Below, in pieces: positions 750 through 64,000 of a DNA stretch of 64,000 bases. This DNA comes from an uncultured Clostridium sp. GTDB taxonomy: Bacteria; Bacillota_I; Bacilli_A; RF39; UBA660. Both the position numbers and the translations under genes were made by a program. The notes under the pieces are model-generated. The model was not told the origin of the DNA. It saw only the letters and a list, made by a program, of their open reading frames with translations, and searched no databases. Within the stretch, counting starts at the first letter, position 1, and each line of letters begins with the position of its first letter. The stretch spans positions 4,401 to 68,400 of the forward strand of contig CABUQZ010000007.1 of assembly GCA_902493795.1 (NCBI GenBank), read 5' to 3'.

Positions 750-2054
750 ATGAAAATACCAACAGTAGCACTAGTAGGAAGACCAAATGTAGGAAAAAGT
801 ACAATTTTTAATAAATTAGTCGGTGAAAAAATATCTATTATTGAGGATACTCCAGGAGTAACAAGAGATAGAATTTATAGTGAAGCAACATATAAAGATT
901 ACAAGTTTAATGTTATAGATACAGGTGGAATAGATGCTTCATTTGATAAGTTTAACGATGTAATAAGAATGCAAGCAGAAATTGCTATAGATGAATCAGA
1001 CTTAGTTCTTTTTGTTGTAGATGGAAAAGAAGGATTAACATCTAACGATTTATTAGTTAGAGATATGTTAAGAAATAGTGGAAAAAACGTTATTGTAGTA
1101 ATTAATAAAATAGATAATAAGAAAACTGAAGAAAATATTTATGATTTTTATGAGTTAGGATTTGATTCATATATTCCAGTTAGTGGTGAACATGGAATTG
1201 GATTTTACGAATTAAGAGATGAAATTGTTAAAAACTTTGAAAAGAAAGAGTATTATGCTGAAGATAAAAGATTAAAGTTTTCTGTTATCGGAAGACCAAA
1301 TGTAGGAAAAAGTAGTCTTATAAATGCTATGTTAAATGAAGAAAGAGTAATAGTAAGCGATGTAGCAGGAACAACAAGAGATGCTATTGATACAGTAATG
1401 AGATATAACGATGAAGAGTTTGTTGTGATCGATACAGCTGGTATGCGAAAAAAAGGAAAGGTCTATGAAAACATCGAAAAATATAGCTTACTTAGAAGTA
1501 TGAAAGCAATAGATAGATCTGATATTTGCTTACTTGTTATAAATGCTGAAGAAGGAATTATAGAACATGATAAACATATTGCAGGTTATGTTCTTGAAAA
1601 GGGTAAAGGACTTATAATAGTTGTTAACAAATGGGATACAGTAGAAAATAATGATATAAAAGAATATTTAAAGAAAGTAAGAAATGAATTTCAATTCTTA
1701 TCATATGTTCCAGTTGTATTTGTAAGTGCCTTAACTAAAAAAAGAATTCATACAATTATGCCAGAAGTATTAAAAGTAAGTGAAAACATAAAAAGGGAAA
1801 TACCTACAAATGTTTTAAATGACGTAATAAATGAAGCTTATACATTAAATATACCACCATCATATAAGGGAAAACGATTAAAAATTTATTTCACTAATCA
1901 ATCAGGAACTAAACCACCAAAATTTACTTTCCATGTAAATAATAAAGGTTTAGTACATTTCTCATACGAAAGATACTTAGAAAACAAATTAAGAGAAAAC
2001 TTTGAACTAGAAGGAACACCAATAATCATTCAGTTTAAGAACAGGAGTGAATAA
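750..2054 (+). CDS. der: ribosome-associated GTPase Der/EngA
   Basis: Two tandem G domains (GRPNVGKST..DTGG..NKID and GRPNVGKSS..DTAG..NKWD) plus a KH-like C-terminus. ATG 750 has a GGGGTGA SD 5 nt upstream, so the ORF-track start at 732 is probably too early. Confidence 0.95.
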   Translation: MKIPTVALVGRPNVGKSTIFNKLVGEKISIIEDTPGVTRDRIYSEATYKDYKFNVIDTGGIDASFDKFNDVIRMQAEIAIDESDLVLFVVDGKEGLTSNDLLVRDMLRNSGKNVIVVINKIDNKKTEENIYDFYELGFDSYIPVSGEHGIGFYELRDEIVKNFEKKEYYAEDKRLKFSVIGRPNVGKSSLINAMLNEERVIVSDVAGTTRDAIDTVMRYNDEEFVVIDTAGMRKKGKVYENIEKYSLLRSMKAIDRSDICLLVINAEEGIIEHDKHIAGYVLEKGKGLIIVVNKWDTVENNDIKEYLKKVRNEFQFLSYVPVVFVSALTKKRIHTIMPEVLKVSENIKREIPTNVLNDVINEAYTLNIPPSYKGKRLKIYFTNQSGTKPPKFTFHVNNKGLVHFSYERYLENKLRENFELEGTPIIIQFKNRSE

Positions 2055-26141: not shown

Positions 26142-26486
26142 ATGTATCAAGAACAATTCAATTTATCTCCTAAAGATATTTTAGAAAAAGAATTTAAAAT
26201 AGACACAAGAGGGTATAGATTAAAAGAAGTAGATCAATATCTAGACCTTATAATTAGTGATTATGAACAATTCTTTAAAATATTGAAAGATAAGGATAAA
26301 GAAAAAGAGGAGTTACTTAATGAGATAATGTCTTTAAAGCAAGAAAACAGAAATTTGAAGACTAGTCTAGAGATTGCTAAATCAGCAGATGATGATGGTA
26401 ATGATTCAGGAAAGACAGTATCAAATGTTGATATTATGAAAAGATTATCTCAACTTGAAAAAATAGTTTACGGAAAAGATGAATAA
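26142..26486 (+). CDS. gpsB: cell-cycle protein GpsB (DivIVA-domain)
   Basis: FKIDTRGYRLKEVDQYLD DivIVA-like N-terminal domain followed by a coiled coil. rnpB follows, as in B. subtilis. Confidence 0.85.
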   Translation: MYQEQFNLSPKDILEKEFKIDTRGYRLKEVDQYLDLIISDYEQFFKILKDKDKEKEELLNEIMSLKQENRNLKTSLEIAKSADDDGNDSGKTVSNVDIMKRLSQLEKIVYGKDE

Positions 26487-26842
26487 TACTTAGGGCAAAC
26501 GCTATATATGAGTATATAGAGGAAAGTCCATGCTCACAGAGTCTGAAATGACTCTAGTGTTCGTGCTAAGGGAGAAAGTAACCTTAGGTAGCAAATTAGC
26601 TTTTGCTAACGGCGACGAATTAATCTAAGTCTTTGATATGATTATAGTAGTCATAAAGTGTCAAAGTGACGAATAAACTGGAAACAGTGGAAGTGGAACG
26701 CGATAAACCCCGCGAGTGAGAAACTCAAATATTGGTAGAGGAGCTCTAACAAAGGAATTTTAACAGAGTTAGGGACTAGGTAACTAGTAGATAAATGTTT
26801 GCCACCTAGTAATAGGTACAGAACATGGCTTATTAAGTATTA
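26487..26842 (+). ncRNA. rnpB: RNase P RNA, type B (Firmicutes)
   Basis: Universal blocks GAGGAAAGTCCATGCTC (5') and ACAGAACATGGCTTA (3'), plus AGTGGAACGCGATAAACCCCGCGAGTGAGAAACTCAAAT. P1 pairs TACTTA (26487-) with TAAGTA (-26839). Confidence 0.95.
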
Positions 26843-50984: not shown

Positions 50985-51016
50985 AAAAAGAACTAGTTAT
51001 TTAGTTCTATTTTTTT
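50983..51016. terminator. Bidirectional terminator between convergent genes
   Basis: AGAACTA-GTTATT-TAGTTCT flanked by A7 and T-rich runs. Confidence 0.65.
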
Positions 51017-51816
51017 AATGTAAACGTTTTAAATATTTTAAAATATTCACTATTATCATCAGGACCTTCAATACCAATGTAATGAGTATTGCCATCTTCT
51101 GCTTCAAAGCACCAAACATATAGCCATATTTTATCTTTCTCATAATATCCTGATACTTGATATGCATTATAATTTGATATTTGAATTCTTGCTCCTTGAA
51201 GATCTTTTACTCCTTCTTTACTTAGCTGCGCTGCAACTGCTTTAGCGTAAGTTTCAGCACCTACCTCACTAGTTGCCATAGCATCTAGAGTAATAATATA
51301 TTTAGCATCTTCACTAGAATATTGCAATCCACGAACAGCATTAACATCTTGAAATTTAACCCATTCTTCAGGTATTTCAACATAACCTAAAGTGTTGTTT
51401 CCAACCGTTTTAGTTGTTTTTTCTTCAACAGGTGGATTTTCTTTAACGTCATTATTATCTTTTCCATCACTATCGCTTGTATTAATAATAATTATAGTAA
51501 CAATAATTACTATAACAAATACAATAAAAGCAGCAATACCAATTAAAGCAGTTTTGCTAAGGTTAAATGGCGTCTTTTTCTTTTTATTGTTGTTTTGATA
51601 ATTATATCCATAATTTTGATTATACTGTGGATATTGATTATTATAGTATCCATTTTGGTTATAATACTGACCATTTTGATTGTAGTATTGGCCATTATTG
51701 TAGTATTGTCCGTTGTAATAACCATTTTGGTTGCTATACTGTCCATTATAGTATTGACCGTTTTGATAAGGATAATTATTTTGATTATTCTTGTTACGTC
51801 TTCCCACACACACCAC
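51007..51816 (-). CDS. single-pass membrane protein with a Q/N/Y-rich low-complexity cytoplasmic N-terminus
   Basis: (NGQYYN)-type repeats, TM (LIGIAAFIVFVIVIIVTIIII) and an external domain of about 150 aa. The GTG start overlaps its SD, so the true start may lie a few codons downstream. Confidence 0.55.
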   Translation of the reverse strand: MVCVGRRNKNNQNNYPYQNGQYYNGQYSNQNGYYNGQYYNNGQYYNQNGQYYNQNGYYNNQYPQYNQNYGYNYQNNNKKKKTPFNLSKTALIGIAAFIVFVIVIIVTIIIINTSDSDGKDNNDVKENPPVEEKTTKTVGNNTLGYVEIPEEWVKFQDVNAVRGLQYSSEDAKYIITLDAMATSEVGAETYAKAVAAQLSKEGVKDLQGARIQISNYNAYQVSGYYEKDKIWLYVWCFEAEDGNTHYIGIEGPDDNSEYFKIFKTFTLKK

Positions 51817-51910
51817 TCCTATATTAAAAATATTACCACAATTATTAATAAGTTTCCATAAATATATAAAAAATATTTAAATATTTTACAAAGAAAAAAG
51901 AGCAGAGCTC

Positions 51911-52162
51911 TTATTTATTCTTAACTTTATTAAAAATTTGTTTAACTTGAGAAGCTTTTACATTGCTTACTTCATACCAACCATGCATAGTCATAGTATC
52001 ATAAGTATCAGCCTGATGAGTTAAAGTGTTAGATAATCCAGCATTTAAAAGTTCTCTAACATCTTGATTTGAACTTTCTAAAGTTCCATGAACATATACT
52101 TCTACAGTACTTTTTAGAATTAGTAAATAGTTATCCATTAATTGTTGATCATTCATTTGCAT
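51911..52162 (-). CDS. spore coat protein, CotF-like
   Basis: 83 aa. MNDQQLMDNYLLILKSTVEVYVHGTLESSNQDVRELL..THQADTYD..HGWY matches the Coat F pattern. Confidence 0.65.
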   Translation of the reverse strand: MQMNDQQLMDNYLLILKSTVEVYVHGTLESSNQDVRELLNAGLSNTLTHQADTYDTMTMHGWYEVSNVKASQVKQIFNKVKNK

Positions 52163-52340
52163 AGTCCTCCAATAAATTAATAAGCTCTACTTTGAAAGCA
52201 ATATGTTCATTAAGTTCTTCTTTCATAAATTCTTTTAATTCTTCATCTTGTAAATTATTTATTGTATCAGTTACTATTGCAATAATATTAGTTTCATGCC
52301 CAACGGCATCTTCTACATATAACAATTCTTTTTGTGTCAT
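52149..52340 (-). CDS. small spore-coat-associated protein (CotF-operon partner)
   Basis: ATG 52340 follows GGAGGA. MTQKELLYVEDAVGHE is typical of N-terminal Coat F-like partners. It overlaps the downstream gene by 14 nt. Confidence 0.5.
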   Translation of the reverse strand: MTQKELLYVEDAVGHETNIIAIVTDTINNLQDEELKEFMKEELNEHIAFKVELINLLEDYANE

Positions 52341-52413
52341 ATTTTCCTCCTCACAAGTATTATTTACAAGAAAAAAATTTTTAAACATAAAAAAAGAAAT
52401 ATTTTAAATATTT

Positions 52414-53076
52414 CTAATTGTTATAGTATTTTTTAACATCCTCATATATTCTTTCGATTTCATTAGTTGCATATCCAAATTCTTCTAACAATCCTAAAAG
52501 ATAATCTTCATTGTAATGCTTTACAATGTAGTTGACATACAAAAGCCATCCATCAAAACAGTTAGATCCGTATAAAATATCTTCTAATGAATAGTCAAAT
52601 TTAAGGGTAGAAATATCTTTCTGTTCACTATAATATTGGGCAATACCTTCAAGAATACATTTACAAGGTATTGGAAATTCCCTCAAATAACAATATTCAA
52701 AAGTTACAAAATGAATATATTCATGAAATAATGCTTTCAAATAATATGACATTACATTTAAAGAATCTTGTAATATATTTTTATGAGTTGTATTTTTGTA
52801 ATCACGAAGAGATAAATAATAAATATTTCCTTTATATGAAGTAGTTCCAACATTCCATTCTGGAATAGGGGAATCATTATTTCTTATCTTTTGTAATGTT
52901 TCGTCATATTCTTTTTTTGTAGGGATGATAAAGATATTTGCCTTTTTTTGAGGAACAAATCCAAATAATTTAAATATTGTTTTAGCATTATTATTAAGAT
53001 AGTTTTCAATAGATTTTACAAGTTCGAAGTCAGCTTCATCATATGAATAAATAGCGTAATTACCAATTAATTGCAT
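52414..53076 (-). CDS. hypothetical protein with an HExxH motif (possible zinc metallopeptidase)
   Basis: 220 aa. LFHEYIHFVT. Confidence 0.4.
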   Translation of the reverse strand: MQLIGNYAIYSYDEADFELVKSIENYLNNNAKTIFKLFGFVPQKKANIFIIPTKKEYDETLQKIRNNDSPIPEWNVGTTSYKGNIYYLSLRDYKNTTHKNILQDSLNVMSYYLKALFHEYIHFVTFEYCYLREFPIPCKCILEGIAQYYSEQKDISTLKFDYSLEDILYGSNCFDGWLLYVNYIVKHYNEDYLLGLLEEFGYATNEIERIYEDVKKYYNN

Positions 53077-53163: not shown

Positions 53164-53192
53164 ATTGACATTTAGTTAATTCCATATTATGA
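53164..53192 (+). promoter_or_regulatory. sigma-A-type promoter
   Basis: TTGACA (53164-53169), 17-nt spacer, TATGAT. Confidence 0.5.
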
Positions 53193-53198
53193 TTAATG

Positions 53199-53303
53199 TG
53201 CATGATGATAAAACATTATGCGTTTCACTCTTACGGACTTAATGTGAGAGTGTATTCAACCAAAACCCCCTGAGCCGGTCCTTAATTGGGCCGGTATTTT
53301 TTT
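53199..53303 (+). ncRNA. candidate small RNA or leader (~105 nt) ending in a GC-rich intrinsic terminator
   Basis: Internal hairpin CACTCT-(15 nt)-AGAGTG. Terminator CCGGTCC-TTAATT-GGGCCGG followed by TATTTTTTT. No ORF. The locally GC-rich sequence stands out from its AT-rich surroundings. Confidence 0.4.
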
Positions 53304-53350
53304 GCCCCAATTTATAAGGGTTTGTAGGGGATAGAATCCGTGATTTTTAT

Positions 53351-53372
53351 TTTAGGTACGATTTAGGTACGA
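53351..53372 (+). repeat. Perfect tandem 11-mer TTTAGGTACGA x2
   Basis: Seen directly at the left edge of the island. Confidence 0.9.
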
Positions 53373-53453: not shown

Positions 53454-54230
53454 ATGCAAACTGAAAGAACTAAGGTTGATTGGTGCTTTAATAAAAAAGC
53501 TAAAGAGGTTGGATATTGGTATTATGTTAATGATTTGGTAACAAATATTTCTAAAAATGGAAACATTTATTCTTGCGATATAGATAAATATAATACTAGG
53601 GTTGAATTTTCCACTAACAGAAAAGAAGAAATTGATGACTTAGAGTGTAATTGTTCATTTTATGAAAATGAAGATAATTTTTGCCCACATGTTTATGCTT
53701 TAGTTTGCTATGCTTTTAAAGTACTTAAAAAATCAAGTGGATATAGTGTTAAATTATTAGAAAAGTATAAAAATATAAATATAAATAAAATCAAAAAAGA
53801 ATTTGATAATGGCAATATTGATTTAATGGATTTAGATATTTTAGGGTATAAATATGAAAGTTTGTTTCCTGATAGAAATAATGAACCGTTATTTGATAGA
53901 TTGGATGAATATATAGAGAGTATGCCAATGGAAGTGCTAGAAAAAGCTAAAAATCAAACTATTTTAGAAGGTGAAGATACAAGCATTTTAGACAAAGCTA
54001 TTAAAAATAAATTAGCGCAGCAAAAAAAATTAGAAGAACAAGAAAGACTAGAAAGAAAAAGAATGAGAAGAGCTATCTTTGCGGGATTTATAGATGGATT
54101 ATTTAATAGTAGTAAAGGTAGTAAACAAGAACAAATAAATATATATGAAAAAGATTATGAACCATATCAATTTGAAGAAGAAGAATTAGAAGAAGATGAT
54201 TATTATTATGAAGATGATAATGAAAAATAA
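53454..54230 (+). CDS. SWIM zinc-finger protein with a coiled-coil and acidic tail
   Basis: CNCSFYENEDNFCPH gives CxCx9CxH (nt 53646-53690). A K/E/R coiled-coil segment follows, and the protein ends EEEELEEDDYYYEDDNEK. Confidence 0.55.
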   Translation: MQTERTKVDWCFNKKAKEVGYWYYVNDLVTNISKNGNIYSCDIDKYNTRVEFSTNRKEEIDDLECNCSFYENEDNFCPHVYALVCYAFKVLKKSSGYSVKLLEKYKNININKIKKEFDNGNIDLMDLDILGYKYESLFPDRNNEPLFDRLDEYIESMPMEVLEKAKNQTILEGEDTSILDKAIKNKLAQQKKLEEQERLERKRMRRAIFAGFIDGLFNSSKGSKQEQINIYEKDYEPYQFEEEELEEDDYYYEDDNEK

Positions 54231-54284
54231 AATATGGTATAATTTTATTTTTTGTAGCATTATATAAAGAAATAAGGTGATTGT

Positions 54285-55226
54285 TTGAAGTCAAGTTGTA
54301 GATCATTAAAATTATCTATAGTATTAGGGGTATTTTTTATAATATCAACAATTATATTATCTATATTAAGTTTAAAATGTAGTAATGAAGTAATAGATAT
54401 TATATTAAATATTTCAATTGGGTTACTTGGAAGTACAATGGTGGCTTTATTGTTAAATATACCTGCGTATGATGTTTCAAAAAGGCAACTTTTAGAAAGA
54501 TTTTGGCACGAGAGTAGAAGGTTGATTTCAAGATTCAGCAAGATTGATTATTTATTTAATGAATATAATGAAGAAAATATAGTTAAATATATTAATGCAT
54601 TAAATAATAAAAAATGGACTGAGGTCTATAATCAATTAACCCCTGAAAATAAAATTGATTGTAAAGAAAAACAATACAAAAAACTTTTGGTAGATGAATA
54701 TATTTTAAATAATCCAGATTTAGAAAGTAAAATTTCAAAATCAGGATTAAAAACATTTGCTAATGAACAAGTGGATAAATATATAGAAAAATTCAGAAAA
54801 AAGGCTGAAATAGTCTTTAAACAATATATTAATTTAGCTAAAGAAAGCACAAAAGAAATGAATTTTATGTTGGGTGATATGCAATTTCTTTCTGGAAATA
54901 AACCTTATGAAAAAATTCATAAAAAAATGTATCAACCATTATTCGATATGCTTGATAAAATAAAAGAACAAAGTTATCATTTTAATTTATATTTAGAGGG
55001 TCATGGAAATGAAGCTGTATGTATAGAAAAAATTTTTGAATTACAAAAGCAATTGTTTAAATTAAAAATAGAAGAAAATGAAACTGTAAAAAATTATACT
55101 GTAATGGGAACTTTTAATGATAATATGTTGATAAATTTAGAAGAATTTAGAGCTGATATGTATAATATAGAACCTGAAAAACAAAATATACATCCTATAT
55201 TATTTAAAAGTCATAAAAAAAGATAA
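54285..55226 (+). CDS. 2-TM membrane protein with a ~240-aa helical cytoplasmic domain (candidate effector)
   Basis: TTG start after AAGGTGA. TMs are LSIVLGVFFIISTIILSILSL and ISIGLLGSTMVALLLNIPAY. Its stop abuts the integrase stop. Confidence 0.45.
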   Translation: MKSSCRSLKLSIVLGVFFIISTIILSILSLKCSNEVIDIILNISIGLLGSTMVALLLNIPAYDVSKRQLLERFWHESRRLISRFSKIDYLFNEYNEENIVKYINALNNKKWTEVYNQLTPENKIDCKEKQYKKLLVDEYILNNPDLESKISKSGLKTFANEQVDKYIEKFRKKAEIVFKQYINLAKESTKEMNFMLGDMQFLSGNKPYEKIHKKMYQPLFDMLDKIKEQSYHFNLYLEGHGNEAVCIEKIFELQKQLFKLKIEENETVKNYTVMGTFNDNMLINLEEFRADMYNIEPEKQNIHPILFKSHKKR

Positions 55227-56330
55227 CTATTCCAAGTTATCTATAATACTCACAACATTATCGAGGGCAGTACTGAACATATGAGAATATGTATTTAGTG
55301 TTTCCTCGATTTTTGTATGTCCTAAAAATTTGGCAACTAATGTAACATTAGCTCCATTGTTAATTAATAATGAAGCACATGAATGTCTAAAGTCATGTAA
55401 TCTTATTGATTTCAATCCAGCTTTGTTTGCTATCAAAGTTCTTCTATCATATATAGTGGTATCACTAATAGGTCTTGCGTCAGATACAACAAAGAAATCA
55501 TCGTTAAAGTTACAATATTCCTTTTTAGACTGCTCGTAGAGCATTTTAAGGTCGTTTAGAAGGACTTTTGTGATAGGAACAATGCGATAACTATCTTTTG
55601 TCTTTGTATCCGAAAATTCGAACTTCGTGCGGTTATTTAACTGGGTAATTTGTTTGTTAACAGATAATACCTTTTTATCAAAATAAATATCTTTCCAAGT
55701 TAAACCTTTTAATTCACCTTTACGTAGTCCACAATAATAAAATATTTCAAATACACATTTCCATCTAAGATCATCTTCACAAGAAATAAACTTCTTAAAC
55801 TCTTCGTAGTTATAGTAAGACATTTCTTTTCTTCTTTCGTTAGGATCTTGGAACTTTGTCATTTTATTATAAAAATTGTTAAAATTAAATCCATGCCATT
55901 TAACTCCAAAGTTAAGAATAGATCTAAGAAATTTATAAATATCATTTTTATATCGTAAAGATAAACCAGCTTTATTTATGTCTCTTTTCCATTGCTCAAA
56001 TTGCATAATGTTAAAATCTTTAATTTTTACGGGAAAGAAGCATTCAATATACTTTTCTTTATGATTATAACCACATAATGTAGTAGCTTTCATTATTTCA
56101 TCATTATGCATTCTAAATTCATCATATAGATCTTTAAACGTCATATTATTATCTTCAACCTTATCAGTAGAAGTAACCATAAACATTCTTTCAGCATCAA
56201 CAGCTTCTTTTTTAGTTGCAAACTTTTTTGATTTATATTGATCCGGTTTACCAAAAGAATCAGTATAATTTACTTTAAAATACCAACATCTACCATCTTT
56301 GGTAGCCTTTTTATCTTTATATATTGGCAC
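55227..56330 (-). CDS. int: tyrosine-type site-specific integrase
   Basis: C-terminal catalytic signature ..GLRKGE..(R), IRLHDFRHSCASLL (HxxR), LGHTKIEETLNTYSHM (H..Y). GTG start. 367 aa. Confidence 0.9.
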   Translation of the reverse strand: MPIYKDKKATKDGRCWYFKVNYTDSFGKPDQYKSKKFATKKEAVDAERMFMVTSTDKVEDNNMTFKDLYDEFRMHNDEIMKATTLCGYNHKEKYIECFFPVKIKDFNIMQFEQWKRDINKAGLSLRYKNDIYKFLRSILNFGVKWHGFNFNNFYNKMTKFQDPNERRKEMSYYNYEEFKKFISCEDDLRWKCVFEIFYYCGLRKGELKGLTWKDIYFDKKVLSVNKQITQLNNRTKFEFSDTKTKDSYRIVPITKVLLNDLKMLYEQSKKEYCNFNDDFFVVSDARPISDTTIYDRRTLIANKAGLKSIRLHDFRHSCASLLINNGANVTLVAKFLGHTKIEETLNTYSHMFSTALDNVVSIIDNLE

Positions 56331-56382: not shown

Positions 56383-56486
56383 CGAGAAATCTCCAAAATT
56401 ATATTTATTATAATTATTAAAGTTTACCAGACTTTTTAATTAGGGATTTTTCATTTTGATCACTGTTCCAGCAGTGGTCTTTTTTT
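56383..56486 (+). ncRNA. candidate antisense sRNA (~100 nt) in the int-repressor intergenic region
   Basis: No ORF. It starts after the extended -10 promoter and ends at GATCACTG-TTCCAG-CAGTGGTC followed by T7. It is antisense to the int leader and carries the 20-mer TTATTAAAGTTTACCAGACT. Confidence 0.5.
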
Positions 56487-57138
56487 ATATATATTTTCTT
56501 TTAACTTGTACTACAATACCAATAATTCTTAAGGACTCAAGTTCTAGAGTTCCTTTTAAATAAGTTTTAGGTTGAATGTTATCACTCATATTAAGTGGCA
56601 TTACCATTATTCCATCATTAATATGTATTAACTTTCTTATTTTTGCATAATCACTATCTTTTTCTAAAACACAATAGAAACCATCTTTATCCATTTTTTT
56701 GCATTCTCTAATAATTAAGCAATCATCTTTATGAAATTCAGGATCCATAGAATTATCATTCATTATTAATCCAAAATAACTTTGATGATTCTTTATCCAT
56801 TCTGGAGGTATTAATTCTTCATCTATTTTAAATGCTTCGTTTTTTAAACACCAAACAGAATCTAAAAATAATTTTGAAAAAACATCAACTTTAACTACAT
56901 CATCATATAAAGCATCATCATCTTCATCAGTTATTTCTTCAATTAAATCAGATTTTTTAATATTAAAATAATCAGCAATTAAATTAATTTTTTCAACACG
57001 TGGGAATATTCTACCTGTGCACCAATCTGTTAGGGTAGTGTATGGAATATTTAAACCTTCAGCAAGTTGTCTTCTTGAAACTTTTCTTTCTTTCATAATA
57101 GCTTTAAGGTTATTTATAAATATATCTCTACTATTCAT
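56485..57138 (-). CDS. CI/LexA-like repressor (XRE HTH + S24 peptidase domain)
   Basis: HTH VSRRQLAEGLNIPYTTLTDWCTG. The S24-like C-terminal domain has DNSMDPEF (Ser) and a downstream Lys (AKIRKL). Confidence 0.8.
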   Translation of the reverse strand: MNSRDIFINNLKAIMKERKVSRRQLAEGLNIPYTTLTDWCTGRIFPRVEKINLIADYFNIKKSDLIEEITDEDDDALYDDVVKVDVFSKLFLDSVWCLKNEAFKIDEELIPPEWIKNHQSYFGLIMNDNSMDPEFHKDDCLIIRECKKMDKDGFYCVLEKDSDYAKIRKLIHINDGIMVMPLNMSDNIQPKTYLKGTLELESLRIIGIVVQVKRKYI

Positions 57139-57171
57139 ATTGTACCTCCTCTAATATAAGTATAACTTAAT

Positions 57172-57210
57172 TTACGAAAAGTTACAAGCAAAATTATGAA
57201 ACTTTCGTAA
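57172..57210. promoter_or_regulatory. operator-like inverted repeat in the repressor/cro divergent region
   Basis: TTACGAAAAGT-(18 nt)-ACTTTCGTAA. Confidence 0.5.
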
Positions 57211-57269
57211 TTTCTATTTACAATTAAAAATTTTTGTAATATTATTAAAATAGGAAGGAGGTTAAAATA

Positions 57270-57548
57270 GTGCAGGCTACGTTAAGAGCAATTCGTGTGC
57301 ACTTAAATATGAGTATTGATGATGCTGCTAAGAAAATAGGTATACCAACAAGTAGATTAAGAGCAATAGAACAACACAAGACAATGCCTAGAATTCCTTT
57401 AGTAAAAAAGATGATGGAAGTATATGATGTAGATATTGATAGTATCTTATTTAATAATAAGGAAGATATAATAAAATTGCATCAATCAAGAACACGAAGA
57501 AAATTTAGATGTAGTAGTAAAGAAGTAAATGAAGTATGTAGTAAATAG
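57270..57548 (+). CDS. Cro-like HTH protein
   Basis: GTG start 8 nt after AGGAGG. XRE-type HTH (LNMSIDDAAKKIGIPTSRLRAIE). Divergent from the repressor. An upstream promoter reads TTTACA-17-TATTAT (57217-57245). Confidence 0.65.
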   Translation: MQATLRAIRVHLNMSIDDAAKKIGIPTSRLRAIEQHKTMPRIPLVKKMMEVYDVDIDSILFNNKEDIIKLHQSRTRRKFRCSSKEVNEVCSK

Positions 57549-57593
57549 AATTTTATATCATGCAGTATCGATATATTTTTTTATAATTCTAAG

Positions 57594-57610
57594 TTACGAA
57601 AATATCGTAA
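57594..57610. promoter_or_regulatory. second operator-like palindrome
   Basis: TTACGA-AAATA-TCGTAA, with the same half-site as 57172-57210. Confidence 0.5.
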
Positions 57611-57658
57611 TTGAAGAGTCTGGTAAACTTTAATAAGAAAATAGAAGGAGATTTAAAA

Positions 57659-57922
57659 ATGAAAAGCAAAACAATAATTCAAGCTGATGAGATGCTGGAG
57701 ATACTAAATAAGCAGTGGGCTACAATACAAGATATAATGAAAATAGGTGCGTTAGGTAGAAATAAAGCTAGAAACATAAAAAATGAAATAGAAAGAAATA
57801 TAATAGATCAAGGATTAAAACTTCCTAATAATTTAGTTCCAATGGAAAAGGTAATTGAATACTTTAAAATTAATCTGGATTTTTTAGTAACAATTAATAA
57901 ATCAAAAAATGGCGAAATATAA
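57659..57922 (+). CDS. 87-aa protein, possible excisionase or DNA-binding accessory protein
   Basis: ATG 57659 follows AAGGAG. Its position (after cro, before the replication genes) and small basic helical sequence are consistent with Xis-like proteins. No motif was recognised. Confidence 0.35.
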   Translation: MKSKTIIQADEMLEILNKQWATIQDIMKIGALGRNKARNIKNEIERNIIDQGLKLPNNLVPMEKVIEYFKINLDFLVTINKSKNGEI

Positions 57923-58721
57923 TAAAGAAAAATATTATTATTTTATGTTAAAATCTAATTTCTTTGATAGTGATGTAATAAGATATCTACAACAAAAACA
58001 AAATGGATATGAAATGATAATCTTATATTTTAAATTAATATTTAAAGCTATAAATAAAGAAGGCAAATTAATTAAAAAAATAGGTAAGAAAAATATACCA
58101 TATACAATAGAAGAATTATCAATTGAAACAGGACATTCTAAAGAACTAATAGAAGATAGTATTAATTACTTTTTAGACACAGAAATGATTGAGAAAAAAG
58201 GTAATACATATTACATAGAAGATGCATTAGTATTAACGAATCAAACTACTGTAGGTGCAATGGAAATGAGAGAATATCGAGCTAAAAATAGTAGGGATAA
58301 ATGTAAGAAAAATTGTAAGCAAAAAGGTAAGACAAATATAGATATAAATAATAATAAATTAGAACTTATAACTAATAAAAAAGAATTAATAAAAAAAGAT
58401 GATAGTAAATATCAAGAAATAATAGATTATTTTAATTTTAAAACAAACTCAAAATATGTATTAATAGATGAATATAAAAAATTAATAGATAATATTTTAA
58501 ATAAATATACAACAGATGATATAAAAATAGTAATAGATAAAAAAACTTCAGAATGGATTAATAATCATAAAATGAGATCATTCCTTAGACCAGAAACATT
58601 ATTAGGTCCTAAATTTGAAAGATATTTACATCAAAAAATTGAACCAAAAACATTAAAAGATATTACAATGGCAGATATTCAAAAAGCAAAAGCTATAAGG
58701 GATGGTAAAGCAAATGGATAA
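57909..58721 (+). CDS. phage replisome organizer / DnaD-like replication protein
   Basis: N-terminal YYYFMLKSNFFDSDVIRYL..GYEMIILYFKL matches the replisome organizer N-domain. C-terminal YQEIIDYFNFKTNSKY..IKIVIDKKTSEW..FLRPETLLGPKFERYL matches the conserved phage C-terminal domain. Confidence 0.7.
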   Translation: MAKYNKEKYYYFMLKSNFFDSDVIRYLQQKQNGYEMIILYFKLIFKAINKEGKLIKKIGKKNIPYTIEELSIETGHSKELIEDSINYFLDTEMIEKKGNTYYIEDALVLTNQTTVGAMEMREYRAKNSRDKCKKNCKQKGKTNIDINNNKLELITNKKELIKKDDSKYQEIIDYFNFKTNSKYVLIDEYKKLIDNILNKYTTDDIKIVIDKKTSEWINNHKMRSFLRPETLLGPKFERYLHQKIEPKTLKDITMADIQKAKAIRDGKANG

Positions 58722-59145
58722 ATTGGATTTTGCAGAGGGAATGAAAATGCTTTCTTCTTGTTATCATAAAGATTTAAATAATGATGATTTTGTTATATGG
58801 TATGAAATGTTAAAAGATATCAATCCAGATGTATTTAAAAAGACAATAATAGAAATATGTAAAGAAAAATCATTTATGCCTACAGTACACGATATATTAG
58901 ATAAATCAAAGAATGTTAATAATAGTTATTATTTATCTATAATTGATAAAATGTATGATGATGGTTATTTTAAAAAGGGATATCAGGAATTAACAGATGA
59001 ACATGCAAATAGAAATTATGATAAAGCAATAAGATGGATAGAAAAGGGAATAATACCACAATTCTTATCAGATGACATGAATGAGTATATAAAATCTAAA
59101 ACTCAAATTAATAATAAAGAAACTTTAAGGATAGAATCATGTTAA
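58702..59145 (+). CDS. hypothetical replication-module protein (possibly a helicase-loader-like protein)
   Basis: It overlaps the upstream stop (alternative start ATG 58714). KEKSFMPTVHDIL is reminiscent of G39P-type loaders. This is a weak call. Confidence 0.3.
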   Translation: MVKQMDKLDFAEGMKMLSSCYHKDLNNDDFVIWYEMLKDINPDVFKKTIIEICKEKSFMPTVHDILDKSKNVNNSYYLSIIDKMYDDGYFKKGYQELTDEHANRNYDKAIRWIEKGIIPQFLSDDMNEYIKSKTQINNKETLRIESC

Positions 59146-59498
59146 GAACTTGTAACGTATGTGGTGGAATCCATCAAGAAGATAAGATGTGTAAAAGAAA
59201 ATATATAAGTAAAAAGAATAGTAAAGCTAATTCATTTAGAAATACTAATGCTTGGATAACAAAAAGAGAACAAATAAAAAGAAGAGATAAGTATCTCTGT
59301 CAAGTTTGTTTAAAGAACAAACTATATACATATAACAATTTACAAGTTCATCATATAATTCCAATAAATATTGACTACTCAAAAAGATTAGATAGTGATA
59401 ATTTAATAACATTATGCACATATCATCATAATCAAGCTGAAAAAGGATTAATAACTAGAGAACAATTATTAGAAACAATAGATCCCCCCGGGGAGTAA
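59139..59498 (+). CDS. HNH endonuclease
   Basis: CQVCLKN..LQVHHIIPI..DNLITLCTYHHNQAE, preceded by an N-terminal Cys pair (CNVCGG). Confidence 0.85.
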   Translation: MLRTCNVCGGIHQEDKMCKRKYISKKNSKANSFRNTNAWITKREQIKRRDKYLCQVCLKNKLYTYNNLQVHHIIPINIDYSKRLDSDNLITLCTYHHNQAEKGLITREQLLETIDPPGE

Positions 59499-59614
59499 AC
59501 AATTAAAAATAATATTTTTTTCTACACCCACAGCCCACCTAAATTCACACAATTATAAATTTTCCGTGAGTTTTTTGGAAAATAAAACAAATAAAAGAGT
59601 ATTAGTACAAACAC

Positions 59615-59938
59615 CTAATACTCAATTTTTTTAATTTCTAAAGAATTTTCATTAGTGATAATTAAAGCATATTTAACTCTTAATAATTTAAAAACCTCAG
59701 CTTTTACTTTTTCTTCATTTTCACCAAACATATTAATTAAATCTTTAGCAGAATTATAATGTTGTAAAAAAGAACCTTCATACATAGCATTTCTATAATA
59801 TGAATTTGCAATATAATAAGCAATGACTTCAGGCATAATATAGCTTTCAATATACTCATCATAATTATCTAAAAAGGGTTTTAATATAGCATTAAATTCT
59901 TCATCACTAATATCAGCATTAGTAGTCTTTCTAATCAT
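59615..59938 (-). CDS. hypothetical protein, 107 aa
   Basis: ATG 59938 follows GGAGGTG. It is the only minus-strand gene between hnh and hsdM. No motif was recognised. Confidence 0.45.
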   Translation of the reverse strand: MIRKTTNADISDEEFNAILKPFLDNYDEYIESYIMPEVIAYYIANSYYRNAMYEGSFLQHYNSAKDLINMFGENEEKVKAEVFKLLRVKYALIITNENSLEIKKIEY

Positions 59939-60105
59939 AGACACCTCCAATTTGTTGTATTAATCACTTAAATATTAAAAAATTACAAGTTATATTTAAC
60001 AAATTTTAAATTTTATTGGCTTAATTAGGCGTCAAAAGTCAATTTTTGTCAATTTTTATGTTATAATTATAAATGGAGAAAACTTTGTAATATGGAGGTA
60101 AAAAT

Positions 60106-61602
60106 ATGAATGAAACTGAATTAAAGAAGTTAGAAGATAGATTATGGTCTGCAGCAGATAAAATGAGAGGTGCAGTGTCAGTATCAGATTATAAATTTAT
60201 AGTATTAGGATTAATATTTTTAAAATATATTTCTGATTCATTTGAAGAAAGATATAAAGAGTTAGTAGAAGAAGGATATGGATTAGAAGAAGAAAAAGAT
60301 AGTTATACAGAAAAGAATATTTTTTATGTTCCTAAAAACGCTAGATGGAGTTATTTAGAGGAACATTCTAAGGATGATAATATTGGAGAAATAATTGATG
60401 ATGCGTTGACTTTAATCGAAAAAGATAATACTTCATTAAAAAATGTATTACCGAAAGATTATAATAGCCCAACAATGAGAAATGTTAACCTTGGAGAATT
60501 AATAGATTTATTTACAAATATTAAAGTTGGAACAAAAGATGCAATTGAAAAAGATATATTAGGAAGAATATATGAGTATTTCTTAGGACAATTTGCTAAG
60601 AATGAATTACAAAAGGGTGGAGAATTCTATACACCAGCATGTTTAGTTAGAACAATGGTTGAATGTATTGAACCATATCAAGGAAGAGTTTATGATCCTG
60701 CATGTGGTTCTGGTGGAATGTTTATTCAATCATTGAAATTTGTTCAAGAACATCAAGGAAATATTAATAATATCAGTATTTATGGGCAAGAAAAAAACCC
60801 AACAACTTGGAGATTGGCAAAAATGAATTTAGCTATTCGTTCTTTAAATGGAGATTTAGGAAAATATGCTGCAGATACATTTACTGAAGACTTACATAAA
60901 GATTTGAAAGCGGATTATATATTGGCTAATCCGCCATTCAATTTGGAATGGGATAGAGATAAAGTTGAAAAAGATCCAAGATGGAGATATGGTCTTGCTC
61001 CAAAAAATAATGCAAATTATGCGTGGCTTCAACACATGATATCCAAATTATCTCAAAATGGTAAAATGGCTTGTATACTTGCGAATGGTTCTTTGGCTGC
61101 TGGTTATGATGAAGCTAAAATAAGAGAGAGATTAATAGAAAATGATTTAATAGATTGTGTTATTGCAATGCCTACAAATTTATTTTATACAGTCACAGTG
61201 CCATGCTCTATATGGATAATTAATAGAAATAAAAAGCAAAAAGGGAAAACTCTATTTATAAATGCGCATAGTCTTGGCGAAATGGTTACAAGAAGACTAA
61301 GAGAATTAACTGATGAAGACATAAAGAAAATCTCAACTACATATCATAATTATGAGAATAATAATAACTATGAAAATATAAAAGGTTTTTGTTCATCTGC
61401 GACTATAGAAGAAATTAAAGGGAAAGGTTTTGCTTTAACACCAGGAAGGTATGTTGGAGTTGATGATACCGGGACAGATGATGTACCTTTTGAAGAAAAA
61501 ATGCAAAGAATTACAAGTGAACTATCTGAACAGTTCGAATTGTCTCATAAACTTGAAAATGAAATTAAAAATAATTTAAAAGCTATCGGTTATGATATAT
61601 AA
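60106..61602 (+). CDS. hsdM: type I restriction-modification system, methyltransferase subunit
   Basis: HsdM N-terminal domain (LWSAADKMRG..YKFIVLGLIFLKYISD). SAM motif I (VYDPACGSGGMF) and motif IV (LANPPFN). Confidence 0.95.
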   Translation: MNETELKKLEDRLWSAADKMRGAVSVSDYKFIVLGLIFLKYISDSFEERYKELVEEGYGLEEEKDSYTEKNIFYVPKNARWSYLEEHSKDDNIGEIIDDALTLIEKDNTSLKNVLPKDYNSPTMRNVNLGELIDLFTNIKVGTKDAIEKDILGRIYEYFLGQFAKNELQKGGEFYTPACLVRTMVECIEPYQGRVYDPACGSGGMFIQSLKFVQEHQGNINNISIYGQEKNPTTWRLAKMNLAIRSLNGDLGKYAADTFTEDLHKDLKADYILANPPFNLEWDRDKVEKDPRWRYGLAPKNNANYAWLQHMISKLSQNGKMACILANGSLAAGYDEAKIRERLIENDLIDCVIAMPTNLFYTVTVPCSIWIINRNKKQKGKTLFINAHSLGEMVTRRLRELTDEDIKKISTTYHNYENNNNYENIKGFCSSATIEEIKGKGFALTPGRYVGVDDTGTDDVPFEEKMQRITSELSEQFELSHKLENEIKNNLKAIGYDI

Positions 61603-61627
61603 ATTTTTGAATAATGATAGGAGTGAT

Positions 61628-62791
61628 ATGATGGAATATACAACATATAAAATATCTGAAATTGGAAATGTAATTACAGGAAAAACACCGCCAACAAAGA
61701 TTAAGGAGTTTTTTTCTGAAACACCAGATAAATATTTATTCATTACTCCAAGAGATATGAATATTGAATCAAAATATATATATTGTACAGAAAGATATTT
61801 AACTGATTATGTCACTGATAAATTTAAAAACATTATTATTGACGAAAAAAGCATATGCGTTAGTTGTATAGGAACTGTTGGGAAAGTATTTATTCCTTCA
61901 CAGTTGTCAATTACTAATCAACAGATTAACTCAATTACAAATATTAAGAGTTTTTGTGATTACAATTATCTATATTATTATTTGAAATGCAATTATAAAA
62001 AGATACAAGCAGTTGCAGGCGGAACTACTATGCCTATTGTAAATAAATCAAGTTTTGAAGATATAGAGGTTGAATTGCCAGATGTTATATATCAAAAAAA
62101 GGTTAGTAAAATTTTAGGAACAATTGATAGTAAAATAAAAATTAACAATGATTTAAATGCTAATATATATAATATGATGATAAATTTATTTAATAATTAT
62201 ATAGATAATTTGGAAACATATGATGAATCAACATTATCAGAAATAGCAAGTTATAAAAATGGATTGGCTATGCAAAAATTTAGACCTATTAATGAAGAAG
62301 GATTACCTGTAATAAAAATAAAGGAAATGAATTCAGGCATTTCATCTGATACAGAAAGATGTAGAACTGATATACCAAGTGACGTAACAATAAATGATGG
62401 TGATGTATTATTTGCGTGGTCAGGAACATTGTGTATGAACATTTGGTGTGGTGGTAAAGCCGGACTTAATCAACATATATTTAAGGTTACATCTGAAAAA
62501 TATCCTAAGTGGTTTTATTATTTTTGGACTTTAAAATATTTAAATAGTTTTATTGAAATTGCAGCAGGGAAAGCTACCACAATGGGCCATATAAAAAGAG
62601 AAGAATTAGATAAAGCAATCGTAAAAATTCCATCAAATGAGAGTATTAAAAAAATGGGAAATATATTTGAGCCATTATTTAAAGAATACATTAATAATAA
62701 TATTGAAAATAGACAGTTAACTGAATTAAGGGATAGTTTGTTACCGAAACTTATTAATGGTGAAATTGACTTAGATAATATTGAGGTATAA
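61628..62791 (+). CDS. hsdS: type I restriction-modification system, specificity subunit
   Basis: Two target-recognition domains separated by conserved helical spacers (..KKVSKILGTIDSKIKINNDLN.. and ..QLTELRDSLLPKLINGEIDL). ATG 61628 follows AGGAG. Confidence 0.9.
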   Translation: MMEYTTYKISEIGNVITGKTPPTKIKEFFSETPDKYLFITPRDMNIESKYIYCTERYLTDYVTDKFKNIIIDEKSICVSCIGTVGKVFIPSQLSITNQQINSITNIKSFCDYNYLYYYLKCNYKKIQAVAGGTTMPIVNKSSFEDIEVELPDVIYQKKVSKILGTIDSKIKINNDLNANIYNMMINLFNNYIDNLETYDESTLSEIASYKNGLAMQKFRPINEEGLPVIKIKEMNSGISSDTERCRTDIPSDVTINDGDVLFAWSGTLCMNIWCGGKAGLNQHIFKVTSEKYPKWFYYFWTLKYLNSFIEIAAGKATTMGHIKREELDKAIVKIPSNESIKKMGNIFEPLFKEYINNNIENRQLTELRDSLLPKLINGEIDLDNIEV

Positions 62792-62793
62792 AG

Positions 62794-63027
62794 ATGGATA
62801 AAAAAATATTACATATTGATTTTAATGAAAAACTACAAGAACAAGATACGGAATATCAAACATATGGATGTAGGCAAAAGAATCCCGATATCTGCTCCAG
62901 TAATGGAATGGAAAATATTTGCGCATTTGCTAGTAAAGATTGTATATGCAAGAAACCATCACGAGCATGGAAAAAACAATTTTTAAAACTTAAAGAAATT
63001 GGTTCTAAAAAAATAGGAAGTGATTAA
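62794..63027 (+). CDS. 77-aa Cys-rich protein nested between hsdS and hsdR
   Basis: It starts 2 nt after the hsdS stop and ends 1 nt before the hsdR ATG. It has six Cys (C-x9-C-x9-C-x6-C-x-C pattern) and a basic tail. Confidence 0.5.
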   Translation: MDKKILHIDFNEKLQEQDTEYQTYGCRQKNPDICSSNGMENICAFASKDCICKKPSRAWKKQFLKLKEIGSKKIGSD

Positions 63028-63028
63028 T

Positions 63029-64000
63029 ATGTTTACAGAAGAACAATTAGAAGATATGACAATGTCGTTGTTAGATAAGTTAAATTATGAATGTAAAAAT
63101 GGTTATAATATTGAAAGAGACTATCATAGTGTTTTTTATGATGATACATTATTTGATGATATAGCTAATATCAATAGAGATTTTACTGATGAACAAATTA
63201 ATGAAGCTATAAAAACTATTAAAAATTTAACTTATAATAACGTTGTAGAAGATAATAAAGAATTTACTAAATATTTATTACAAGGGGTACCGGTAGAAGT
63301 TAAAACTAATACTGGATATCAATATAAAAATGTTAAATTGATTGATTTTGATAATGTAGAAAACAATCACTTCCAAGCTATTAATCAATTTACTATTATT
63401 GAGTTTGAACAAAAAAGACCAGATATAATTATATTTATTAATAGTATTCCTTTAGTAGTAATAGAATTAAAAACTGCTACTAATGAAGATGTTAAGTTAG
63501 AAGATGCGTATCTTCAATTACATAAATATAGAGAAATATCTATACCATCGTTATTTAGATATAATCAATTTTTGGTTATAAGTGATGGTGTAACTGCTAA
63601 AGCAGGAACTATTACAAGTGCATATAGTAGATTTAGTGATTGGAAAAAAGTTGAAGATACAGATGTAGTAACAGAAAATATGCCAACACATGAAACATTA
63701 TTTAATGGAATGCTTAGAAAAGATAGATTGTTAGATTTAATTGGTAATTACATTTTATATAGTAATGATTCTAAAATTTTAGCACAATACCATCAATATT
63801 TTGGTGTTAAGAAAGCAATTAAATCTACTGTGACAACAGGTGCAAAAACAGGTAAAGCAGGAATCGTTTGGCATACTCAAGGTTCTGGTAAATCATTTAG
63901 TATGGTGTTCTATGCTGGTAATATGATTAAAATGTTATTAAATCCTACAATTTTAGTTGTAACAGATAGAAATGATTTAGATAATCAATTATATGAAACT
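63029..64000 (+). CDS. hsdR: type I restriction enzyme, R subunit (N-terminal 324 codons; continues beyond the window)
   Basis: My own translation gives MFTEEQLEDM..RPDIIIFINSIPLVVIELK (nuclease/PD-(D/E)xK region) ..GIVWHTQGSGKSFSMVF (helicase motif I) ..VVTDRNDLDNQ. The frame is open to the window end. Confidence 0.9.
   Translation, partial: MFTEEQLEDMTMSLLDKLNYECKNGYNIERDYHSVFYDDTLFDDIANINRDFTDEQINEAIKTIKNLTYNNVVEDNKEFTKYLLQGVPVEVKTNTGYQYKNVKLIDFDNVENNHFQAINQFTIIEFEQKRPDIIIFINSIPLVVIELKTATNEDVKLEDAYLQLHKYREISIPSLFRYNQFLVISDGVTAKAGTITSAYSRFSDWKKVEDTDVVTENMPTHETLFNGMLRKDRLLDLIGNYILYSNDSKILAQYHQYFGVKKAIKSTVTTGAKTGKAGIVWHTQGSGKSFSMVFYAGNMIKMLLNPTILVVTDRNDLDNQLYET

Follow-up and report, generated by a model that had tools for sequence, protein, structure and literature searches.

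Do two neighbouring genes that share the space between the edge of a mobile island and its integrase gene form one functional unit, or are they separate passengers of the same element? The question is raised by a 64,000-nucleotide stretch of DNA from an uncultured Clostridium sp. (GenBank assembly GCA_902493795.1, contig CABUQZ010000007.1, positions 4,401 to 68,400 of the forward strand), which was analysed over its whole length and is called the window below. In this window gene A, encoding a protein with a stand-alone SWIM zinc finger, is followed by gene B, encoding a protein with two predicted transmembrane (TM) helices (Table 1). A preliminary description, made from the letters of the sequence, had seen in the two genes a candidate abortive-infection pair composed of a sensor and a membrane effector.

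From comparison with related loci (designated by L numbers) we consider it probable that A and B are two separate single-gene cassettes in the cargo slot between the left attachment site (attL) and the integrase gene (int) of a phage-derived island, with B likely acting in defence or exclusion and A as an accessory gene. The insertion site of the island would be the 3' end of a small-RNA-like gene that follows recG; further cargo of the island is a Type I restriction-modification (R-M) system. The locus is novel for its two uncharacterised families rather than as a new two-gene system.

Independent occurrence of genes A and B

Open reading frames (ORFs) were searched with the profiles of both families in about 17 non-redundant contexts of the A family (14 loci and three loci with small-module members) and in eight informative contexts of B. 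Only the window and L015/L016 contain members of both families. The partner is absent from about 15 of the 17 A-family contexts and from six of the eight B contexts, including those of the closest relatives of each gene (L017 and L032 for A; L034, L008 and L028 for B). In L015/L016 the two genes are not adjacent; the order is B, a gene for a DUF262/HNH (GmrSD-like) protein of 521 amino acids (aa), and a divergent 325-aa A-like gene. In L017 the product of A is 97% identical, and a homologue of window positions 58630-60014 follows 65 bp after its stop codon, while B, int, cI and cro are missing.

The junction between the two genes points in the same direction. Identity to the A-only locus L017 ends at 54230, the stop codon of A, and the match to the B-only loci L008 and L034 begins at 54242, from which we conclude that a seam of about 11 bp joins two cassettes. 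The ratio of nonsynonymous to synonymous substitutions (dN/dS) is 0.22-0.29 for A compared with B-less loci and 0.15-0.29 for B compared with A-less loci, so that purifying selection acts on either gene in the absence of the other. It is true that A and B lie on the same strand with a gap of 54 bp and no predicted terminator between them, as one would expect of a dedicated pair. However, a promoter-like sequence that includes an extended -10 box stands in front of B (54214-54243), and the ribosome-binding site of B lies in the spacer as well.

The left edge of the island

Compared with L017, which derives from a metagenome-assembled genome (MAG) of a Bacilli bacterium, recG is about 70% identical, and the identity jumps to 97.7% from position 53257 through the stop codon of A. 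The mobile DNA therefore starts at a C-rich motif, AACCAAAACCCCCTGA (AACCAAAACCCCCUGA), at 53258-53273. This edge and an integrase gene that begins directly after B place both genes between the island edge and int, as had been described. The motif is invariant, is predicted to be single-stranded, and belongs to a unit with a sigma-70-like promoter (TTGACA-17-TATGAT), two hairpins and an intrinsic terminator, which is also found downstream of recG in L004, L017 and L028. In the alignment of these only four sequences RNAalifold predicts 23 base pairs, 14 of which show a compensatory change in at least one sequence. No Rfam family matches the unit. We regard it as a candidate small RNA gene downstream of recG, whose 3' end seems to have served the island as its integration target; a search of the window for a tRNA or tmRNA as integration target found none.

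A second copy of the 16-nt boundary motif, as a possible right attachment site (attR), was sought in the window and not found, so that the right end of the island must lie beyond position 64000. Inside the left edge, the repeat TTTAGGTAC is present in two copies. As at least two copies are also reached in 10 of 100 shuffled sequences, support for the repeat comes from its conservation across loci; it possibly represents arm-type binding sites of the integrase.

The island has several features of a temperate prophage, namely int, a cI-like helix-turn-helix (HTH)/S24 gene, a Cro-like HTH gene and a replisome organiser, and the integrase is about 33% identical to integrases of Bacillus and Clostridium phages. 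Genes for packaging, structure and lysis are lacking from the island start to the window end; instead, the Type I R-M system comes after the HNH gene. In the related loci, which are decayed forms, packaging, structural and lysis genes are missing too. Since the window holds no structural or lysis genes, the element may be a satellite-like or decayed island rather than a prophage. Window positions 63015-63999 share 95% DNA identity with the start of the HsdR gene in L007.

Gene B as integrase-linked cargo

The stop codon of B directly abuts that of the convergent int gene. This junction is kept in the window and in L028, L029, L012 and L034; in the last four loci, int has shrunk to a remnant of about 100 codons at most. 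In L012 a 96-aa ORF is an in-frame fusion of a gene of the 111-aa family with the C-terminus of int (LGHTKIEETLNTYSH), which indicates that a deletion took the region from int through HNH while B and the Type I R-M system stayed. The conserved B-int junction therefore makes B the ancestral cargo of the element of this integrase, with the site of cassette exchange upstream of B. The comparison shows a domestication of the island, in which integrase, repressor and replication genes decay, and B and the Type I R-M system are kept.

Translation of B starts with TTG behind AAGGTGA, and both the TTG and an N-terminus of the form MK[AS]xC[KR]xLK are common to all B homologues. The structure model of the protein has a mean predicted local distance difference test score (pLDDT) of 90 and a predicted template modelling score (pTM) of 0.78. 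Its helices 2-32 and 35-85 hold two hydrophobic segments (from residues 5 and 35) that form a hairpin encoded by about nucleotides 54297-54458, and beyond the hairpin the model predicts an all-helical domain of about 250 aa and a small three-stranded C-terminal sheet. Positive charges stand before the first TM helix (MKSSCRSLK) and after the second (SKRQLLERFWHESRRLISRFSK); by the positive-inside rule, the protein would have its two ends, and with them the 250-aa domain, in the cytoplasm (N-in/C-in).

An exhaustive profile search places B in a family of 462 clusters at 50% identity, nearly all of which are stand-alone proteins of about 300 aa. Among 130 diverse members Y62 is the sole invariant residue, and no catalytic motif is found. 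Two N-terminal TM helices and a helical domain without a catalytic motif had been described for B from its sequence, and the model and the alignment bear this out. B belongs to no family of Pfam, PADLOC, PHROG or NCBIfam. Foldseek, one of the checks that the preliminary description had recommended, was run against PDB and BFVD and returned nothing better than E 0.04, with only designed helical bundles and TM domains of ABC exporters among the matches. Profile searches of PDB sequences with the alignments of B and of A yielded only coiled-coil noise. Two members of the B superfamily are fused to other domains. One (P0119) combines a complete B-like region with a DUF2971/PADLOC PDC-S31 domain; in the other (P0209) a fragment of an HsdR helicase is attached to a B-like region beginning at the second TM helix, and this fusion may be an assembly or recombination chimera. 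When the 130 relatives were compared with PADLOC, strong matches came only from fusion partners. The B protein has no match in INPHARED phages or PLSDB plasmids (tblastn), nor in IMG/VR viral contigs (alignment-based scans); two distant relatives, one searched against plasmids and one against phages, likewise gave no match.

Recognised defence genes accompany B in seven of the eight informative contexts. These are Type I R-M systems (window, L008, L012, L028), AbiE (L008, L034), a Type II restriction endonuclease and/or methyltransferase (L034, L029), a pAgo-associated-like gene with PDC-M33A (L028, L029), and a GmrSD-like gene, SRA-McrA and SLFN helicases (L015). B is 87% identical in L034 and 69% in L008, and in both lies 19 bp after AbiEii. 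In L028 and L029 a DUF7695 gene precedes B, its stop codon overlapping the start of B, and an AlbA_2/HATPase-type gene (cl7), pAgo-associated-like, stands upstream of B in L028, L029 and L012. The DUF7695 product is a small zinc-ribbon protein of the form CxxC...CxC, which also occurs in L001 (Table 1). The 521-aa protein between B and the A-like gene in L015 combines a DGxHR motif of the DUF262 type with an HNH motif at its C-terminus and is GmrSD-like by inspection, with weak library support (NsnA, 3e-4; HNH region of IscB, 2e-3).

We interpret B as integrase-linked cargo whose product would sit in the inner membrane by its N-in/C-in 2-TM hairpin and extend into the cytoplasm with a helical domain of about 250 aa that presumably has a new fold. 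The gene stays intact in islands from which the integrase, repressor and replication genes have been lost. The protein would act as a self-contained, membrane-acting protein of phage defence or exclusion, either of an abortive-infection type, perturbing the membrane upon infection, or of a superinfection-exclusion type. Judged from its genomic context, defence or exclusion is the most likely function of B.

Gene A and its tail-defined family

The SWIM finger of A (C65-x-C67-x9-C77-x-H79; CNCSFYENEDNFCPH; nucleotides 53646-53690) has the canonical signature that had been noticed in the sequence, and each of its four residues recurs in at least 90% of the 32 family members that were aligned. Its match to Pfam PF04434 is sub-threshold (12.1 bits against a cut-off of 19.6; E 0.15), and five more distant A homologues carry precomputed PF04434 assignments. 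The AlphaFold model has a mean pLDDT of 80, exceeding 90 over residues 10-90. In this model the predicted fold of residues 14-87 superposes on the SWIM region of ZSWIM8 (9rwz_N) over 78 columns with a root mean square deviation of 1.9 Å and a Foldseek probability of 1.00, at an E of only 0.09. Pfam, PADLOC, PHROGs and NCBIfam gave nothing above threshold for A, and its one match in PADLOC-DB v2 is a weak one to SWIM_XIII (E 0.011), which covers the finger alone.

In the model, the finger and a small N-terminal beta-sheet are followed by a helical middle (99-171), a long charged helix (177-217) and the tail (218-258), which is predicted to be disordered, has a pI of 4.05 and contains D or E at 16 of its 41 residues; the coiled coil and very acidic tail of the preliminary description are thus recovered. 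The middle carries the motif LFDxLDxYIESMPxEVLEKA...GEDTxIxDKAI. A JetD_C match on this motif (E 0.12) is weak and was taken as noise. Further towards the end follow a hydrophobic patch, IFAGFIDGLF, and an acidic, Tyr-rich C-terminal peptide (nucleotides 54156-54227).

It is this peptide and not the finger to which all invariant columns of the family alignment belong, and they hold where the rest of the protein is only 25-30% identical. Its consensus is Y-E-P-[YW]-[QN]-F-E-E-E-E-L-E-E-D-D-Y-Y-Y-E-D-D; a stretch LxxWQKDLVxxG in front of it and a hydrophobic GLF patch help to define the family. A profile of the last 118 residues of A retrieves 372 clusters, mostly of proteins of 60-150 aa. The small members sampled consist of a short hydrophobic patch (GLFDDLFG, IFAGFIDGLF), a linker rich in S, N and K, and the module LxxW[EQ]xDLVxxGxYEPWNFEEEELEEDDYYYEDD; they lack the SWIM finger, and some have N-terminal TM helices in its place. 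Since the tail and not the finger is most conserved, and since the tail alone defines 372 clusters, A is a SWIM-bearing member of a tail-defined family, in which, on the sequences compared, the finger is one of several optional N-terminal additions. The extreme invariance of the peptide implies a conserved binding partner. In L035-L038 a protein of 77 aa (P0299) represents the minimal tail module; its gene lies directly after a coupling-protein gene (TraG/VirD4) and upstream of an 800-aa gene and Ssp-like phosphorothioation genes (PAPS_reduct, DUF4007, BrxC-like).

No constant partner of the A family emerges from its contexts. Downstream neighbours differ between L032, L001, L004 and L007 (lipoproteins, a NERD protein with a Zn-ribbon protein, a small TM protein), and the neighbours downstream of A in other loci show no similarity to the B superfamily. 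The shared theme is a position at the borders of restriction-type defence and conjugation modules, with Type I R-M and AIPR, BREX, Dnd/Ssp-like and SLFN/AlbA_2 genes as defence neighbours in a small and partly non-independent sample. The family is confined to uncultured low-GC Bacilli and Clostridia, and its named sources are MAGs from Bacilli, Erysipelotrichaceae and Clostridia that have not been cultured. When sequences are clustered at an identity of at least 90%, the cluster of A holds 124 and that of B 33, which may hint that A is the more widespread gene. The A family, too, has no match in INPHARED phages or PLSDB plasmids (tblastn) or in IMG/VR viral contigs (alignment-based scans), and no paper was found that mentions the tail motif of A or DUF7695. 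We tentatively regard A as an accessory or regulatory protein, whose SWIM finger might bind nucleic acid or protein and whose tail might dock on a conserved partner.

Alternative explanations

The best surviving alternative grants B a partner, although not a fixed one. B would be a portable membrane effector that works with interchangeable upstream genes, among them A, DUF7695 together with AlbA_2/HATPase, AbiEi/AbiEii and a Zn-ribbon HNH gene, so that A would be one alternative sensor. B is indeed usually the last gene of a tight co-directional array, following its neighbour after 54 bp in the window, 19 bp in L008 and L034 and about 100 bp in L010, and overlapping it in L028 and L029. Three of the upstream genes encode small Zn-binding proteins (SWIM, the CxxC ribbon of DUF7695, the Zn-ribbon HNH), and a modular logic of sensor plus 2-TM protein is known from CBASS and retron systems. 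However, AbiEi/AbiEii is already a complete toxin-antitoxin system, B comes first in its array in L015 with a divergent helicase upstream, and the integrase is the only truly conserved neighbour of B. Tight packing is normal in islands, and the common feature of the upstream genes was seen by eye only. We therefore think this explanation unlikely.

Rather less credit is due to the idea that neither gene serves the defence of the host and both serve the element, A for instance as an anti-restriction or establishment factor and B in element maintenance or the exclusion of related elements. The acidic tail of A would then mimic DNA or dock on the methyltransferases of R-M or BREX systems. Such a role would suit the extreme acidity of the tail, the position of A-family genes, which border Type I R-M, BREX and phosphorothioation loci and, in conjugative elements, stand immediately behind the coupling-protein genes of type IV secretion systems (T4SS), and the tie of B to the integrase rather than to any host gene. 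Against it speak the absence of both families from INPHARED phages, IMG/VR contigs and PLSDB plasmids, the retention of B after the loss of mobility genes, which argues for a benefit to the host, and the length of the tail, whose 20 residues are far fewer than those of the DNA mimics Ocr or ArdA.

A bolder proposal concerns both families at once: B would be a portable membrane effector with a new fold behind interchangeable small sensors, and the A-family tail a hitherto unrecognised docking signal that couples variable N-terminal sensors to Type I R-M, BREX or phosphorothioation systems or to the membrane. We mention it as a long shot. Last, a dedicated abortive-infection system of two genes, with A as SWIM-finger sensor and B as its own 2-TM effector, is very improbable, because the closeness of the genes on one strand, their common residence as cargo in a defence-rich island and the distant second co-occurrence in L015/L016 are outweighed by the missing partners, the selection on each gene alone, the recombination seam, the promoter-like site before B and a family of A that is defined by its tail and consists mostly of small proteins, with no SWIM finger in those sampled.

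The proposal of a defence pair thus stands in one half. The neighbourhood is rich in defence genes, both in the window (Type I R-M) and near B homologues (AbiE, R-M, GmrSD-like, pAgo-associated-like), and this part is upheld; the functional pair is not, as the two genes largely fail to co-occur in other genomes, a finding that the preliminary description itself had said would count against it.

Several observations weigh against two separate cassettes with B as a defence gene. The second co-occurrence of the two families in L015/L016 exceeds what is expected by chance genome-wide for two rare families. As L017 looks like a deletion derivative, its A gene without B reflects secondary loss and not independent assembly, and B may need an upstream partner, since it usually stands last in a co-directional array behind a small Zn-binding or nucleotidyltransferase gene. 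No known homologue or experiment gives either protein a function, and the defence role of B is one of guilt by association. The association itself is narrower than the counts suggest: the window, L012, L028 and L029 descend from one island type, which leaves only about four independent classes of B context, and in L010 a library search recognised no defence gene, with a Zn-ribbon HNH protein upstream of B that was identified by inspection only. Because the window stops short of the island's right end, the element is described here up to position 64000, and attR is presumed to lie beyond it.

On balance, the reading of A and B as separate cassettes accommodates the distribution of both genes, and it has practical consequences. 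As the pair is not upheld, the effort of cloning A and B together can be spared. The B family, with its 462 clusters, a confidently predicted fold without solved or viral match, its almost exclusive occurrence in defence islands and its tie to the integrase, recommends itself for single-gene defence screens in low-GC Firmicutes. The A family, with 372 clusters, presents a 20-residue acidic, Tyr-rich peptide on very different N-termini, and its genes flank R-M, BREX, phosphorothioation and conjugation modules.

Surroundings of the island

The window is low-GC DNA (about 25-30% GC) with housekeeping genes typical of Firmicutes. A class B bacterial RNase P RNA (276.6 bits) fits a Firmicute or Mollicute-related host. 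Between recG and the small-RNA-like unit lies a block of four genes on the minus strand, which is missing from that place in L004. It includes an ORF of 269 aa with a long N-terminal low-complexity part rich in N, Q, Y and G (NGQYYN repeats), one TM helix and a globular C-terminal part, and, next to it, a gene with a CotF domain.

The 111-aa gene between the HNH gene and the Type I R-M system (cluster cl5) is kept beside the Type I R-M system or the island in six loci, and a 52-aa remnant of it is found just upstream of A in L032. A resemblance between the LDEYIESMP motif of A and this gene was considered and rejected, as 9 of 15 residues agree but the family profile gives no support.

Table 1. 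Features of the window and of the comparison loci. Positions refer to the locus named; strands are given where recorded.
Feature	Locus	Position	Strand	Basis or remark
Class B RNase P RNA	window	26486-26837	+	
Four-gene block	window	51007-53076	-	
269-aa low-complexity ORF	window	51007-51816	-	
CotF-domain gene	window	51911-52162		
Small-RNA-like unit	window	53165-53305	+	promoter/terminator scan, conservation, RNAalifold; 3' part is the left edge of the island
Tandem TTTAGGTAC repeat, 2 copies	window	53351-53370	+	kept in four islands; candidate
Gene A, 258 aa, ATG start	window	53454-54230	+	ORF listing
A-B spacer with cassette seam	window	54231-54284	+	identity breakpoints against L017, L008, L034
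Gene B, 313 aa, TTG start	window	54285-55226	+	ORF listing
Tyrosine integrase	window	55227-56330	-	Pfam Phage_integrase 1.1e-27 and Arm-DNA-bind_4; convergent with B
Phage-type regulation and replication module	window	56485-59498	mixed	library scan
cI-like HTH and S24 peptidase	window	56485-57138	-	
Cro-like HTH	window	57270-57548		
103-aa ORF	window			in the module, between Cro-like HTH and replisome organiser
Replisome organiser, phage-type	window	57909-58721		
147-aa ORF	window			in the module, between replisome organiser and HNH gene
HNH endonuclease	window	59139-59498		
111-aa gene	window	59615-59950	-	no known family
Type I R-M system	window	60106-64000	+	Pfam
HsdM	window	60106-61602	+	
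HsdS	window	61592-62791	+	followed by a 77-aa ORF
HsdR	window	start ~63030	+	continues past window end
int remnant abutting B	L028	8942-9283		
int remnant abutting B	L029	8959-9264		
int remnant abutting B	L012	6776-7066		
int remnant abutting B	L034	~1830-1960		
Counterpart of the int remnants	window	55227-55330		
DUF7695 gene	L028	7783-8001		
DUF7695 gene	L029	7783-8001		
DUF7695 gene	L012	3857-4060		
DUF7695 gene	L001	11876-12340		
521-aa GmrSD-like gene	L015	7047-8612		between B and A-like gene
A-family context	L007			after HsdR and AIPR
A-family context	L032			A 81% identical; after SLFN/AlbA_2 giant gene; two lipoprotein genes downstream
A-family context	L020-L022	7722-8804		360-aa protein with TM, SWIM and acidic tail; last in BREX type-1 operon (PglX, PglZ, BrxL); start overlaps BrxL stop
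A-family context	L019			after SNF2/DUF3670 helicase, beside Mob relaxase
A-family context	L018			three small genes after T4SS coupling-protein gene
A-family context	L035			directly after T4SS coupling-protein gene
A-family context	L042			before PLD-SNF2 gene and Dnd-like genes
A-family contexts	L024, L039			plain chromosomal settings

Comparison with known systems

Neither A nor B has a significant match among the known anti-phage systems of PADLOC-DB v2, and no described system of a SWIM protein with a 2-TM protein was found in the literature, in agreement with the preliminary description. The latter had likened B to the SLATT-type 2-TM effectors of CBASS, retron and related conflict systems, and the likeness extends to the N-terminal hairpin, the helical cytoplasmic part, the lack of a catalytic motif and the site in a defence island. 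A SLATT-like effector is nevertheless not supported by profiles: no SLATT family matches B at E<=1, and none is among the 25 Pfam families most often matched by the 130 superfamily members at E<=0.1; a single relative has a weak match to RTasSLATT of PADLOC (6.8e-4). Nor do the eight B contexts contain a nucleotide-signal synthase (SMODS/CD-NTase), SLOG or reverse transcriptase gene. The cytoplasmic domain of B, with about 250 aa, looks larger than a SLATT domain. Given the missing profile match, the lack of a nearby signal-generating enzyme and the lack of a fold match, B would act in the manner of the SLATT class without being demonstrably part of it.

The finger of A, of the form CxCxnCxH after a small beta-sheet, resembles those of bacterial SWIM proteins, such as the partner of SNF2/DUF3670 and the accessory protein of retron XIII, and of the eukaryotic ZSWIM8. 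In L019 a member of the A family follows an SNF2/DUF3670 helicase, whereas A itself has neither a helicase nor a reverse-transcriptase partner. The middle motif, the hydrophobic patch and the acidic, Tyr-rich tail are unrelated to these proteins and mark another family.

A working analogy for this tail, by which A may be compared with better-known proteins, is provided by the C-terminal tip of SSB, the tails of T7 gp2.5 and gp4, and the mimics Ocr and ArdA. Like these, A would carry a short, invariant, acidic and aromatic tail on a variable and partly disordered protein, in association with R-M and BREX systems. By contrast, its motif YEPYxFEEEELEEDDYYYEDD has no sequence relationship to them and is much shorter than true mimics.

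For B, defence and exclusion genes carried as "morons" beside integrases offer a further comparison; examples are Sie2009 of lactococcal phages, Ltp of S. thermophilus phages, the defences of mycobacteriophage prophages and the immune systems borne by phage-inducible chromosomal islands (PICI). B differs from them in having no sequence or fold similarity to phage proteins in INPHARED, IMG/VR and BFVD, and in a window without structural or lysis genes. The analogy would nonetheless hold in several respects: like these morons, B appears to be a small accessory gene in the region between the attachment site and the integrase, outside the transcription of the lysogeny module; its product is predicted to be membrane-associated, as in the Sie cases; and a second defence system, the Type I R-M system, is carried on the same element.

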